From the sequence record MK327931.1: DNA of 64,000 nt. The stretch is one strand, 5' to 3'. This stretch comes from Escherichia phage vB_EcoM_G17. Made by a program: the position numbers and the translations under genes. Within the stretch, counting starts at the first letter, position 1, and the number at the start of each line of letters is the position of its first letter. Shown here piece after piece: positions 34,779-43,265 of the stretch. The notes under the pieces are model-generated. The model made no database searches and was not told where the DNA came from. It saw only the letters and a list, made by a program, of their open reading frames with translations.

Positions 34779-35158
34779 TTAATAGGATACTCCTTTCCTT
34801 GTACTATATATGACAAAATCCATCCGTAATGAATAGGATGATTTTTGTCTGAATCAGGAATAAAATATAAAGCTGTACTTGGATTATGACTGAATAAATC
34901 TTTATTGTCAAATGTAAAATGTGATAATATAATTTTCCTTGCACTTGGACGAATAACATTCTTAACACTGAACTCTGAACCTTTGTATTTCTCCGATAAT
35001 TCAAATAATGCATCTGTAATTAAATCACTGATCTCTTGGATTACAAAATTCTGATAAAATGCATTAATCTCTTTTAACTCTGTATACAATTCACTTCTGG
35101 TATTCAAAAGAAATATTACTTTTTTAAGATCCTGAACTATTTCTGGATTCATATTCAT
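34766..35158 (-). CDS. hypothetical protein
   Basis: 130-aa ORF. Confidence 0.65.
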   Translation of the reverse strand: MNMNPEIVQDLKKVIFLLNTRSELYTELKEINAFYQNFVIQEISDLITDALFELSEKYKGSEFSVKNVIRPSARKIILSHFTFDNKDLFSHNPSTALYFIPDSDKNHPIHYGWILSYIVQGKEYPIKWKD

Positions 35159-35390
35159 TTATCTCATTCTGTAACTTAAGCATCAAAATTTGCATATTAA
35201 TTTTTTGTAAAAGGTGCTTGATAAATTTCTGTGCCATTTCTTCTTGTTCTTTTGTACCAAGATAAAATAACAGATTAAATTCTGATAATCGCAAAGAAAA
35301 ATCTTCATCACCACCCTTTAAACAAAAATCCCTGTACTTTGTAGCGTACAAATATTGGTTTACCTTTTTATAATACCCTGTGTTTTGCAT
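35124..35390 (-). CDS. family B small paralog
   Basis: core YLGTKEQEEMAQKFIKHL. Confidence 0.7.
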   Translation of the reverse strand: MQNTGYYKKVNQYLYATKYRDFCLKGGDEDFSLRLSEFNLLFYLGTKEQEEMAQKFIKHLLQKINMQILMLKLQNEINEYESRNSSGS

Positions 35391-35578
35391 ACTATCTCCG
35401 TTCGCAACGAATTTATATAATAATGAACAAATTGTTCTTGTGAACGTGTTCCAAGAAAAATAAACATATCAAACTCTGTTGTTTTTAAATTCAATGCATC
35501 TTTTGTAAAATTCCTGTTGAATTCCCTGTACTTTTGGGTCTTCCATTCTTGATTAATTGTCTTGTATATCGATTTCAA
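35360..35578 (-). CDS. family B small paralog
   Basis: core FLGTRSQEQFVHYYINSL. Confidence 0.7.
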   Translation of the reverse strand: MKSIYKTINQEWKTQKYREFNRNFTKDALNLKTTEFDMFIFLGTRSQEQFVHYYINSLRTEIVCKTQGIIKR

Positions 35579-35879
35579 TGATTCTCCCTGATGTACCTTG
35601 TATTAGCTTATCATACATATCGAGCATCACTTTTTGAATACTAATTAGTACTGGCATCGTGCAAATATCAATGTCGTATACTAAGCTGTACTGGAATAAT
35701 TCATCTTCCTGCATTTGTACTAAATTAGGTAAAGGATAATTGTCTGCCTCTTCATCCTGGTACTTGAAATGCATAACACCATCCTTTTTGTACAAAAGAA
35801 TGTCAATATCACCTAACTCATCAGCATAACCAAAAATACATATACTCGATGTTTTTGCTATATTAAATTTCATCTCCAC
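35553..35879 (-). CDS. family A paralog (short form) embedded among family B genes
   Basis: core QEDELFQYSLVYD. Confidence 0.75.
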   Translation of the reverse strand: MEMKFNIAKTSSICIFGYADELGDIDILLYKKDGVMHFKYQDEEADNYPLPNLVQMQEDELFQYSLVYDIDICTMPVLISIQKVMLDMYDKLIQGTSGRIIEIDIQDN

Positions 35880-36115
35880 CTCTCTCCGTCAGCACAAGAG
35901 TACTGGTACGTTGTCGTTAGGGTAGGGACCATGTTTGTAATGGGCATATTATTAACAATAACGGTAACAGGCATAAGAATCGTCTCTACTCTACTCTGTC
36001 CTGTCCTTGTACAATTCATCTTCTGCATTTCATCTGAATCCATGAAATACAATACAAATGGTGCAATCCCAAGAACAATACACAAGACGATAAGGAAATT
36101 TAAAAAATTTAACAT
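35870..36115 (-). CDS. small membrane protein
   Basis: N-term hydrophobic segment MLNFLNFLIVLCIVLGIAPFVLYF; own promoter upstream. Confidence 0.6.
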   Translation of the reverse strand: MLNFLNFLIVLCIVLGIAPFVLYFMDSDEMQKMNCTRTGQSRVETILMPVTVIVNNMPITNMVPTLTTTYQYSCADGERWR

Positions 36116-36144
36116 AATTTTTACCCTATGATTAACGTTAGTGT

Positions 36145-36173
36145 ACTATATCAGTAATGAAAAGTACTGTCAA
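36145..36173 (-). promoter_or_regulatory. sigma70-like promoter
   Basis: -35 TTGACA (36168-73), 17-nt spacer, -10 TATAGT (36145-50). Confidence 0.65.
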
Positions 36174-36174
36174 G

Positions 36175-36579
36175 CTAGTATTGCACTGTTCTAATGAAAG
36201 TACCTTTACTCATGGATTTAAGCTTATGAACCTCTTCCTGCATACCCTTAATTAACCCTAAAGGTATAGGTAAATCATGTACTAAGCTGTACTGAAAGTA
36301 TTCTTCTTCAGATAAAGTACTAACATCTGGAACGCCAATTTTAGTTATATAATCTTGATGTGTTGACCAATAAATTATATCTTCAGTACTATTGTACTCC
36401 CCATATACTGAACAATATTGATGAATATCTTTCCTGTACCCTTGAGCAATAAAGAACTTATCTAATGCATTACCAGCATTAATAGAATTTACTTCGATTG
36501 TCACAGTACTTGAGCTTGTATAACTCTTAATATTATCAGTACTCTTAATACTCAACGATGTGTTCTTCATAATCACCAT
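36175..36579 (-). CDS. family A paralog (short form)
   Basis: core SEEEYFQYSLVHD. Confidence 0.75.
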   Translation of the reverse strand: MVIMKNTSLSIKSTDNIKSYTSSSTVTIEVNSINAGNALDKFFIAQGYRKDIHQYCSVYGEYNSTEDIIYWSTHQDYITKIGVPDVSTLSEEEYFQYSLVHDLPIPLGLIKGMQEEVHKLKSMSKGTFIRTVQY

Positions 36580-36889
36580 TAGGCTCCTGTTTAGATTCTT
36601 TCATTAGTACTATCATCTTATGTACTAATGGCATAGGGAACTCTAAATCCCATACTAATGATTCCTGGAAGTATTCCTCTGGTGATAAAGTACTTAAATC
36701 TTTAATATCAACGTGCTTGTATATTTTATTTTCGTAATTAACAAATGATATATATAAATCACTAACATAAGAATCATAGGTAATTGTGAATGGCTTACCC
36801 TTGTAATCCATTACATCTCTACATAGACTACTTTTGATATATGTATGTTCAAATGATTTATATACCTTGAGTTGTATATTAGTTTTCAT
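36545..36889 (-). CDS. family A paralog (short form)
   Basis: core SPEEYFQESLVWD. Confidence 0.75.
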   Translation of the reverse strand: MKTNIQLKVYKSFEHTYIKSSLCRDVMDYKGKPFTITYDSYVSDLYISFVNYENKIYKHVDIKDLSTLSPEEYFQESLVWDLEFPMPLVHKMIVLMKESKQEPNGDYEEHIVEY

Positions 36890-41624: not shown

Positions 41625-41779
41625 TTACATTTATCCCTTATTAGATTTGTGAGTGCAACTATGTGTTCATGGATATAAAAATTTTGATGAGAAGTTCCAA
41701 GAAAGTACAGCATCCATCCCTCACTCTGCTCGACTTCTAGTTTAGTATCGAGTTGGTCAGATATGTTAATGAAAACCAT
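41621..41779 (-). CDS. family B small paralog (52 aa, N-terminally short)
   Basis: below track cutoff; core FLGTSHQNFYIHEHIVAL; TAATG and ATGA junctions. Confidence 0.6.
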   Translation of the reverse strand: MVFINISDQLDTKLEVEQSEGWMLYFLGTSHQNFYIHEHIVALTNLIRDKCK

Positions 41780-42036
41780 TAGTTCTTTTCCTTTCTTTCT
41801 ATTTGTTTCATAAGAACATCGATATACTCACCCGCAAACCTATTCTGATACTGCGTCCCCATGAATTCCAACATCCATACTTCAGCAACCTTTTCTTCAA
41901 TTTCAGTCCATTGTAAGTACATCATAGTGAAGTAAATGGTGTTCTCTTTTTTTCTGGCACTCTTAGCACGGGCCTCGTATTCAAAGTTATTAATGATGTT
42001 CATTACATTTGTCCATAATGTAATTCTTGAGTGCAA
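41779..42036 (-). CDS. family B small paralog
   Basis: core FMGTQYQNRFAGEYIDVL. Confidence 0.75.
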   Translation of the reverse strand: MHSRITLWTNVMNIINNFEYEARAKSARKKENTIYFTMMYLQWTEIEEKVAEVWMLEFMGTQYQNRFAGEYIDVLMKQIERKEKN

Positions 42037-42217
42037 CTATGTGTGCAATAACATACTCTTCCTGGAAGTTCGTCCCCAGTACAGCCAACATGCGTACATC
42101 GGTGGTGTTTATCTTGTGTTCCAATCGAGTTAAACCTTTTATTTGTAAAAGGGTATCGTATTTGTTTAATGCATCAATGATAATTCTCATCTTCTCAATA
42201 TTACTTAAATGTTTCAT
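41990..42217 (-). CDS. family B small paralog
   Basis: core VLGTNFQEEYVIAHIVAL. Confidence 0.75.
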   Translation of the reverse strand: MKHLSNIEKMRIIIDALNKYDTLLQIKGLTRLEHKINTTDVRMLAVLGTNFQEEYVIAHIVALKNYIMDKCNEHH

Positions 42218-42426
42218 AGTTTACTCTTAATGTAGTTCTGAAGTTCAATTAAGTATTTCCCTACATAATACTCCTGAAAGTCTGTATCCAAAAATGCACC
42301 CAAAAGTAAATCCTTCTCCATTGCCCTTGATAAGTTAAGGTCTGCATTTGAAAGGTATATAAGTAATATTTCAGTCTGGACAGAATTAAAACGTTTCTTA
42401 TATTCTTCAGGTGTTAATATAATCAT
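42214..42426 (-). CDS. family B small paralog
   Basis: core FLDTDFQEYYVGKYLIEL. Confidence 0.75.
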   Translation of the reverse strand: MIILTPEEYKKRFNSVQTEILLIYLSNADLNLSRAMEKDLLLGAFLDTDFQEYYVGKYLIELQNYIKSKL

Positions 42427-42638
42427 AATTTGCTCCTGATGTATTTCTCAAGAGATGACAAATACTTTTCCTCATAATACTCCTGATAGTCTGTTCCCAA
42501 GAATGCACCCATAAGTATTTCATTTTCCAATACCTCGGCTAAGTTTAAATCAGACGTCTCTTCGTATATTATGAGGATTTCAAGTTGTCTGGCAGCGATG
42601 CGTTCAGTATATTGATATGAGTTTTCTATAATAATCAT
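42423..42638 (-). CDS. family B small paralog
   Basis: core FLGTDYQEYYEEKYLSSL. Confidence 0.75.
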   Translation of the reverse strand: MIIIENSYQYTERIAARQLEILIIYEETSDLNLAEVLENEILMGAFLGTDYQEYYEEKYLSSLEKYIRSKL

Positions 42639-42844
42639 ATTTTACTCTTAATATCTTCTATTAAAAATCGAATCCATTCTTCAACATAATCTTCCTGATG
42701 GTTTGTGTTCAGTACAGCCAACATGCGGATCTCTGCTCTTGCAACTTCAATTTCAGTTTTAGGCAGGTCTTTGCTGATATCCACCATTAAGTCCATGTAT
42801 TTCAAGATAAGACCGTATGATTGGGTTCGTGTTATAGTTTTCAT
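42635..42844 (-). CDS. family B small paralog
   Basis: core VLNTNHQEDYVEEWIRFL. Confidence 0.75.
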   Translation of the reverse strand: MKTITRTQSYGLILKYMDLMVDISKDLPKTEIEVARAEIRMLAVLNTNHQEDYVEEWIRFLIEDIKSKI

Positions 42845-43041
42845 TGTTTCCTCGTGGACAATATTTTATTTTTCAATGTATCCATATATTGCCACACCCA
42901 TCTACCCTGATAGTTTGTTCCCAATGTAATCAAAAGGTATAACTCCATTCGTTCTACGTGTGTGTCTGTGTTGTAAATCTTTACGTAGTTTTTACGTAAC
43001 AGTGATTGATATTCTTCTTTATTTAAAATACGCATTTTCAT
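42841..43041 (-). CDS. family B small paralog
   Basis: core TLGTNYQGRWVWQYMDTL. Confidence 0.75.
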   Translation of the reverse strand: MKMRILNKEEYQSLLRKNYVKIYNTDTHVERMELYLLITLGTNYQGRWVWQYMDTLKNKILSTRKQ

Positions 43042-43235
43042 AGTTTACTCGTTATATCTTCAATTAAATACCAAATCCAATCGTTGACATACCTTTCCTG
43101 AAAGTTAGTTCCAATGAATAGTGCCATAATTAATTCACGCTTATAGGCAATACCACGGTCATGGGACTTATACATTATCATAGCCATGTTATTGATAAGT
43201 CTTTCGTGGTGCTGTTCTTTAGTTAAAATACGCAT
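43038..43235 (-). CDS. family B small paralog (first gene of the array)
   Basis: trimmed to MRILTKEQ after AAGGGAG; core FIGTNFQERYVNDWIWYL. Confidence 0.75.
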   Translation of the reverse strand: MRILTKEQHHERLINNMAMIMYKSHDRGIAYKRELIMALFIGTNFQERYVNDWIWYLIEDITSKL

Positions 43236-43265
43236 AGGGACTCCCTTAAAATTAATATCAATCAT

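Follow-up and report, generated by a model that had tools for sequence, protein, structure and literature searches.

The 64,000-nt stretch of Escherichia phage vB_EcoM_G17 (MK327931.1) analyzed here (hereafter the window, position 1 being its first letter) carries 33 paralogous copies of a very small gene, which we call family B; most of them form a single tightly packed block that adjoins the direct terminal repeat (DTR) on its inner side. Family B is a genuine, old, lineage-specific tandem multigene family, in which the scaffold is conserved and the surfaces are diversified. As for its role, we tentatively favor, with a probability of about 0.4, an early, translationally coupled set of soluble non-virion mini-binders, each having its own target among host or defense proteins and together forming a host-takeover or counter-defense repertoire.

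The array as a phenomenon is of a known kind, the lineage-specific multigene families of large viruses, and the protein family itself is without a characterized relative. The bare existence of the array and the PHROG number of the family were already known; the fold, the extent, the position relative to the DTR and the evolution are new here. The window is 100% identical to Escherichia phage Sharanji (OR545507.1; Asteriusvirus, 350,079 bp), and the array region is also matched by 34 other records, all of them E. coli or Salmonella jumbo phages.

The family-B proteins and their predicted fold

From 29 contiguous open reading frames (ORFs) we built a hidden Markov model (HMM). Among the 550 ORFs in the six frames of the window, this model retrieved exactly 33 of family B, all on the minus strand. 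Their E-values are 2e-27 to 1e-17 for the 29 ORFs of the block and 1e-11 to 8e-7 for four outliers, the next ORF having 0.15. The 29 members are contiguous (36879-43235), and the outliers form two pairs (35124-35578 and 22133-22520). Thus, the preliminary description of this DNA, made without database searches, was correct in recognizing a real paralogous family and in counting 33 genes, but placed all of them in one operon, while the two outlying pairs are not in the block. Beyond the window, the other ~286 kb of Sharanji gave no further member with this HMM and only one marginal match (E = 0.009); hence all 33 copies are found on the same side of the terminal repeat, within ~21 kb. Two of the genes, B30 and B23 (Table 1), are not annotated in GenBank OR545507.

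The proteins are ~65-85 amino acids (aa) long, and in their alignment the N-terminus reads M-K-I-L-T-x-x-E-Y. In the core, G is retained in 29, T in 32, Q in 32 and E in 24 of the 33 copies, and on the C-terminal side we observe L in 32/33, I in 26/33 and K in 25/31. In the columns where G, T, Q or L is invariant, the third codon positions are near saturation (1.6-1.9 bits), whereas positions 1 and 2 are almost fixed. Thus, it is the protein that is conserved and not a DNA repeat, and the duplications are old. The identity between paralogs is 25.5% on average and 56% at most; for adjacent copies it is 31% (permutation p = 0.0002), and this higher similarity of neighbors is a signature of tandem duplication. 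The array hence has the features of a virus multigene family, or lineage-specific tandem expansion: 33 tandem paralogs, with neighbors more alike than distant copies.

AlphaFold2, supplied with an alignment of the 33 paralogs only, modeled B16 as an antiparallel three-helix bundle (helices 6-25, 31-45 and 52-76) with a one-residue beta-bridge from the N-terminus to the G-T turn; the predicted local distance difference test score (pLDDT) was 96.9 and the predicted template modeling score (pTM) 0.82. The same topology was obtained for the weakest member, B31 (pLDDT 87). According to these models, each copy is an antiparallel three-helix bundle, in agreement with the initial guess of three helices. 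By general helix-capping rules, (T/S)xxE before helix 1 and GTxxQ between helices 2 and 3 look like helix caps. In helices 2 and 3 the conserved positions (L, I, V and Y) share one face (p = 0.001 and 0.008, respectively), and the model suggests, as the simplest reading, that the conserved residues are structural. The isoelectric points (pI) range from 4.3 to 9.9 and the net charge from -8 to +9, about half of the copies being basic (pI >9) and several acidic (pI 4.3-5.5). The one-face conservation together with this spread of charge looks like a constant scaffold with variable surfaces. Variability among orthologs tracks variability among paralogs (rho = 0.66).

The LG(T)xxQ turn superficially resembles, as we presume, a helix-turn-helix signature; a helix-turn-helix reading of LGTxxQE was supported neither by the AlphaFold2 model nor by fold searches, and no Pfam helix-turn-helix model matched. 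The B domain also occurs as the N-terminal module of longer proteins, of 269 aa in phage UB and of 115-133 aa in Klebsiella phage RaK2 and a metagenome contig. The extensions matched no known family, and the domain, being fused to unrelated extensions, appears from these sequences to be an independent module. In Salmonella phage SD-15_S21 there is a 106-aa chimera of two neighboring copies. These unusual proteins are encoded at L006 2307-3116 (UB), L011 11980-12366 and 15645-15992 (RaK2), L010 6446-6847 and L009 3714-4034.

Family B corresponds to phrog_4148 of PHROGs v4, a family of unknown function: all ten tested members match it (E from 1e-26 to 7e-9), seven of them at 1e-19 to 1e-26 and eight across profile positions 1-70 or more of 74. 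The entry describes the same family, and the catalog gives no function, structure or note of an array; phrog_28039 is a split-off of phrog_4148. A scan of all 33 members against Pfam-A, NCBIfam and PADLOC produced isolated matches only, with E-values of at least 0.0006; those in Pfam and NCBIfam are far below the curated cut-offs (PADLOC lists none). Neither a profile search of PDB sequences nor a search of PDB folds gave a meaningful match. In the fold search of BFVD, every match up to E = 0.35 was an Escherichia phage protein of the Asteriusvirus group or an unnamed entry. Colicin and pyocin immunity proteins gave no Pfam match, the model has three helices and not four, and there was no Im structure among the PDB matches listed. 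Thus, the initial impression of an unrecognizable family holds insofar as no family with a defined function was matched in Pfam, NCBIfam, PADLOC or PDB, although the family is catalogued.

A HMMER scan of 1.84 billion representative proteins yielded 100 clusters at E <=1e-3, and those traced came from Asteriusvirus, from phage-sized contigs of 340-360 kb filed under E. coli, from RaK2-like Klebsiella phages and from metagenome contigs. In the literature, one sentence of Hua et al. 2017 (mBio, PMC5646251) mentions an array in phage 121Q, linking tandem duplication to genome growth. The paper gives no coordinates, and this is probably the orthologous array: 121Q has 23 contiguous copies and two pairs in the same order as in Sharanji. 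Hua et al. describe the genes as 'very similar', whereas the paralogs here are only 25% identical on average, and provide no family definition, fold, evolutionary analysis or function. The Sharanji paper (PMC11895373) does not mention the family.

Evolution of the array in related phages

The same HMM was applied to eight relatives, the copies being counted in each locus scanned. We observed 33 copies in PBECO4, 32 in slurp01, 31 in vB_Ec-M-J, 30 in UB, 28 in UE-S1, 27 in each of 121Q and SD-15_S21, and 21 in Turkey5. In each of them the array occupies the same location and the coding strand, and the order of the copies from B01 to B33 is kept. The identity to Sharanji is mosaic (42-100%), with identical and very divergent orthologs interleaved; the Turkey5 set is much more divergent (25-70%). 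B07, B08, B16 and B19 are missing in several phages. Host-specific content of the array was considered and rejected, as the array of the Salmonella phage SD-15_S21 is nearly identical to that of the E. coli phage PBECO4.

The ratio of nonsynonymous to synonymous substitution rates (dN/dS), calculated by the Nei-Gojobori method, is 0.34-0.41 for concatenated positional orthologs. Zone by zone, the comparison with 121Q gives 0.43 for the array, 0.16 for the genes of the DTR zone and 0.31 for the downstream genes; with vB_Ec-M-J the values are 0.40, 0.20 and 0.35. Within a single pair of phages dS varies from 0 to >1 per gene, indicating exchange of gene-sized fragments. Pooled per alignment column, dN/dS is ~0.1 in the core and 0.5-0.84 at the surface; no column exceeds 1 (maximum 0.84), and hence pervasive positive selection is rejected by this test. 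Taken together, the sequence comparisons indicate that tandem duplication gave rise to the copies, which persist as positional orthologs under purifying, relaxed selection, and that whole genes appear to have been exchanged, lost or gained between related phages.

Outside Asteriusvirus, the 24 kb of RaK2 that were scanned contain at least six members, arranged as scattered pairs. One of them, RaK2_00362 (121 aa; the B domain with an extension), is encoded where spaced genes give way to overlapping ones. At least 17 members, 12 of them contiguous, are present in an uncultured contig of 101 kb. Thus, the family predates Asteriusvirus and expanded there. Variation of the copy number (~21-33 in Asteriusvirus) and restriction to one lineage are again typical of multigene families, and family B looks like a lineage-specific expansion.

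Gene junctions, the terminal repeat and neighboring genes

Minus-strand ORFs cover ~89% of the window and form three zones: small genes with ~85-nt spacers between them (~43.4-64 kb), the tightly overlapping family-B block (36.9-43.3 kb), and, below 36.9 kb, larger overlapping genes including other paralog families. The block is co-directional with all neighboring genes, among them those of the DTR. With start codons chosen to fit the family N-terminus, the 28 internal junctions comprise 12 ATGA overlaps, one overlap of a single base shared by stop and start codons, nine longer overlaps (14-32 nt) and six gaps (1-35 nt). A clear Shine-Dalgarno sequence is absent at many of the starts. This layout is compatible with translational coupling, as proposed earlier, the coupling itself being inferred.

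At the head of the array we observe a terminator-like hairpin (minimum free energy -23.6 kcal/mol, z = -4.0; Table 1) and, behind it, a predicted sigma-70-like promoter, as originally described. The promoter is mostly conserved in vB_Ec-M-J, where the -10 hexamer is TATTAT. Promoter-like matches also occur inside the array (e.g. 38391-38363), but such sites are not enriched relative to shuffled sequences (57 found, 52.7 expected). In GenBank the first gene starts at 43265. However, ATG 43265 abuts the -10 hexamer, while ATG 43235 is preceded by GGAG 5 nt upstream and yields the family N-terminus MRILT; hence the gene most likely starts at 43235.

The DTR annotated in vB_Ec-M-J is 21,525 bp long, and its inner end (position 21525) aligns at 96% identity to ~43334 of the window, between the hairpin and the promoter. 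The DTR of Sharanji is 20,668 bp by PhageTerm (PMC11895373), and a repeat of this size measured from 43334 would reach about the right end of the window. Repeats of similar length have been reported for fEgEco12 (20,993 bp, confirmed by restriction digests; PMC13070987) and CBB (22.5 kb, supported by read depth and pulsed-field gel electrophoresis; PMC5259590). Thus, the array begins in unique DNA, ~40 nt from the DTR; the promoter at 43293 is outside the repeat, and, counted from the left DTR, the array is the first transcription unit of the unique DNA. In vB_Ec-M-J, the distance from the DTR end is 69 nt to the opening of the first family ORF and 99 nt to the annotated start of this ORF.

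The DTR boundary at ~43334 directly follows the large hairpin. In phage T5, inverted repeats at the end of the first-step-transfer DNA have been proposed to be an injection stop signal, and by analogy a T5-like two-step entry could take place at the DTR boundary.

Table 1. Family-B genes and other features of the array region (window coordinates)
Feature	Coordinates	Strand	HMM E-value	Remarks
DTR inner boundary	43334			approximate; DTR to the right, ~43334-64000; DTR end of vB_Ec-M-J maps here
Terminator-like hairpin of the last DTR transcription unit	43391-43456	-		13-nt arms (43391-43403/43444-43456), 40-nt structured loop, then U6
Sigma-70-like promoter TTGACT-16-TAAAAT	43266-43293	-		predicted; 10/12 consensus matches
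B01, first array gene	43038-43235	-	1.4e-21	GGAG 5 nt upstream of ATG 43235; GenBank start 43265 unlikely
B02	42841-43035	-	6.6e-21	alternative start 43041
B03	42635-42844	-	2.1e-23	also matches phrog_28039; ATGA junction
B04, most acidic copy	42423-42638	-	1.4e-20	pI 4.3
B05	42214-42426	-	4.9e-23	nearest paralog B04, 51%
B06	41990-42217	-	6.6e-24	
B07	41779-42003	-	2.4e-23	no close ortholog in vB_Ec-M-J or UB
B08, short	41621-41779	-	1.3e-17	52 aa; match from profile position 25, first 24 (helix 1) unaligned
B09	41367-41624	-	6.4e-27	
B10	41138-41389	-	1e-20	alternative start 41410
B11, aberrant core	40905-41153	-	2e-20	insertion and Q replaced in the alignment
B12	40703-40918	-	3.8e-24	
B13	40488-40706	-	1.2e-25	
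B14	40279-40491	-	1.6e-24	
B15	40052-40276	-	2.3e-27	
B16, AlphaFold2-modeled copy	39811-40044	-	2e-27	pLDDT 96.9
B17	39518-39775	-	3.5e-26	49% identical to B16
B18	39306-39521	-	2e-21	
B19	39075-39293	-	6.2e-22	best-match copy only in slurp01 and UE-S1, none in 6/8 relatives
B20	38831-39073	-	3.7e-24	54-56% identical to B19 and B21
B21	38608-38853	-	3.1e-26	
B22, most basic copy	38397-38639	-	2.4e-21	pI 9.9
B23	38170-38400	-	1.6e-19	absent from the GenBank OR545507 feature table
B24	37971-38192	-	8.6e-24	
B25	37753-37974	-	1.8e-25	
B26	37553-37768	-	6.4e-21	
B27	37341-37556	-	1.9e-22	
B28	37123-37344	-	1.1e-22	
B29, last of the contiguous array	36879-37121	-	3.2e-23	family-consistent start 1 nt past the upstream stop
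B30, divergent	35360-35578	-	2e-11	TTG start; phrog_4148 E = 7e-9; unannotated in GenBank
B31, most divergent copy	35124-35390	-	8.3e-7	AlphaFold2: same three-helix topology, pLDDT 87
B32, outlying pair	22302-22520	-	3.6e-7	orthologs 94-100% identical in three phages that have the pair as well
B33, outlying pair	22133-22324	-	1.4e-11	phrog_4148 E = 4e-17

The spacers of the DTR zone (43695-62000, ~85 nt) have a stereotyped structure: a near-consensus sigma-70 promoter, TTGACA-17-TGTATAAT ... TACAT, is followed by a GC hairpin (GGGGAG-n-CTCCCC; 17 occurrences, all in 44203-58905) and this in turn by a Shine-Dalgarno sequence. From its sequence, the zone looks like ~55 monocistronic immediate-early units. 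On the minus strand, a repeated element, GGGATTGACTCCGGTCAGTCCC followed by TATTATAT, is found at 44814, 47566 and 50835, with a variant near 54120. It forms a hairpin with the -35-like TTGACT in the loop and stem, and may be a combined terminator and promoter.

On the other side of the array, four non-B genes interrupt family B. One of them, the 35870-36115 ORF (81 aa), has a hydrophobic N-terminal segment, which is likely a membrane anchor, and just upstream of it there is a strong promoter-like site (TTGACA-17-TATAGT with TG, 36173-36145). The downstream family A (12252-36889) in fact comprises two paralog families, both of unknown function: phrog_13866 (10-11 genes; motif E(E/L)(Y/F)FQxSLVxD) and phrog_9317 (nine genes, ~150-185 aa); examples lie at 36545-36889, 36175-36579, 35553-35879 and 26427-28231, and at 17148-26417. 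The two are remote relatives of each other (hhalign probability 74%), while family B is unrelated to both (<1%). Hence kinship of families A and B, or their Rosetta-stone fusion, is rejected, the more so as the extensions of the longer B proteins match nothing. The ten flanking proteins tested all belong to PHROGs of unknown function and have no Pfam match, so the neighbors give no functional context.

Just past the right end of the window (Sharanji record 40817-54854; L012 4372-18409) there are about a dozen tandem paralogs of ~380 aa on the opposite strand, with an RCC1-repeat annotation for one of them; they make up a further large tandem family adjoining the terminal repeat. The ~41-kDa 'DNA condensation proteins' of the phAPEC6 virion may be their counterparts. 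The window spans the ends of the GenBank record: its base 1 corresponds to Sharanji record position 322448, 77 nt off the offset implied by the array match, and probably the record ends overlap slightly or the assembly is permuted.

Possible roles of the array

In the scheme that we tentatively favor, host sigma-70 RNA polymerase would transcribe the block early from the 43293-43266 promoter, and the genes would be translated by coupling, so that all copies are made together. The proteins would be soluble non-virion mini-binders, the surface of each copy binding a different target, most likely a host protein or a host defense protein, and the array would correspond, in a phage, to the multigene families that large eukaryotic DNA viruses have at their genome ends. 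In its sharper form, to which we give a somewhat lower probability, the scheme describes a natural library of ~30 mini-binders on one three-helix scaffold, each neutralizing a different host factor or defense protein as the genome enters.

The non-virion assignment is suggested by the virion proteome of phAPEC6, where none of the 62 proteins falls within 7-10.5 kDa (PMC7247149). The genes behave as accessory ones: their dN/dS is about twice that of the DTR-zone genes, their identity is mosaic, the copy number varies from 21 to 33, and B07, B08, B16 and B19 are dispensable.

Several observations weigh against the mini-binder scheme. The array lies outside the DTR, and should entry into the cell start with the right genome end, no DNA would arrive later than the array. 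The head promoter is a consensus match only, and in DNA as AT-rich as this such matches show no enrichment. The solved anti-defense proteins in PDB (anti-CRISPRs, Ocr-like mimics, sponges) have no sequence or fold similarity to family B. As no pooled column has dN/dS above 1, an arms race is not demonstrated, and the fixed order and genus-wide retention would fit 30 distinct housekeeping-like roles equally well. Small proteins readily escape virion mass spectrometry, and our literature search found no Asteriusvirus transcriptome or functional study of early genes.

Alternatively, the copies could be subunits of one hetero-oligomer or self-assembling structure (a filament, a coat or a DNA-associated scaffold), with coupling providing for equimolar synthesis. 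Blocks of overlapping genes often encode subunits of a complex, and here 29 genes form one overlapping block, their order is kept across the genus, the fold with its long helices is uniform in all copies, and every copy is under purifying selection. However, individual copies are lost in different phages, Turkey5 has ~21 very divergent ones and RaK2 only ~6 scattered ones. The net charge varies from -8 to +9, the conserved positions on one face fit an intramolecular core with no obvious common interface, the domain also serves as a module of larger proteins, and no member was detected in virions. Thus, we regard a common assembly as unlikely.

The copies might also be nucleic-acid-binding regulators or DNA- or RNA-coating proteins, each with its own site. 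That about half of them are basic and that they are small helical proteins would agree with this, and a similar proposal was made for the zinc-ribbon expansion of phage G (Iyer et al. 2021, PMC7824862). Yet helices of 15-25 residues in an up-down-up bundle are not a helix-turn-helix, no Pfam model of this motif matches, and several copies have a pI of 4.3-5.5, which makes such a role improbable.

It is similarly improbable that the copies are largely dispensable filler, produced as duplication expanded the genome for a larger capsid and subject to drift or providing dosage only, as in the ratchet by which Hua et al. 2017 (PMC5646251) interpret the 121Q array. The dN/dS approximately twice that of the repeat-zone genes, the loss of copies without obvious consequence and the lack of a positively selected column are consistent with the filler reading. 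On the other hand, dN/dS of ~0.38 is well below 1 and approaches 0.1 at core positions; the folding motif is kept in 32 of the 33 copies despite 25% mean (56% maximum) identity and saturated synonymous sites; and the positional orthologs persist across the genus, in a family that predates the split from RaK2-like phages. Moreover, copies this divergent cannot act as mere dosage of one function. Finally, a ~216-bp tandem DNA repeat (iterons, packaging or replication sites) open for translation by chance, which the regular unit length and the location adjoining the terminal repeat might suggest, is refuted by the nearly random third codon positions at invariant amino-acid columns and by dN/dS <1 in every comparison, as well as by protein-level HMM E-values reaching 1e-27 and the confident AlphaFold2 model from the paralog alignment, and has a negligible probability.

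With 33 copies, family B is a very large paralog family for a phage, and the system is well defined, with one confident fold and genus-wide orthologs for each position, and E. coli K-12 is a host of the phage. Should the copies bind host or defense proteins specifically, one operon would provide ~30 new inhibitors at once; such a binder library would be a natural example of scaffold diversification by a phage and a new structural class of anti-defense or host-takeover protein. If they are subunits or filler, the array bears on the growth of jumbo-phage genomes.

The array was initially called highly unusual, which is partly right, as there are precedents in 121Q and in Bacillus phage G, where a zinc ribbon is expanded to ~35 copies (Iyer et al. 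2021, PMC7824862). The phage G expansion is also huge, is built of a tiny domain, resides in a jumbo phage and has no known role. It differs in consisting of zinc ribbons and not of metal-free three-helix bundles, as well as in lineage and host, and homology is not expected.

The T5 pre-early genes, the SPO1 host-takeover module and the Kayvirus Tre genes are host-takeover modules of terminal repeats. They consist of small co-directional genes of unknown function, expressed early from sigma-70-type promoters at the genome end that leads; the array, likewise co-directional and with a predicted promoter of this type, would resemble them in the scheme favored above. However, these modules lie inside the repeat, are mostly single-copy and have their own promoters, which fits the DTR zone of Sharanji, whereas the array is a single paralog family in one block just outside the repeat.

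The array may also be compared with the MGF110/360/505 families of African swine fever virus and the terminal host-range families of poxviruses, which modulate immunity or host range. Their roles are documented, the phage proteins are much smaller, with translational coupling inferred, and there is no homology. In both cases, nevertheless, diverged tandem paralogs are situated at a genome end or terminal repeat, vary in copy number and are restricted to one lineage.

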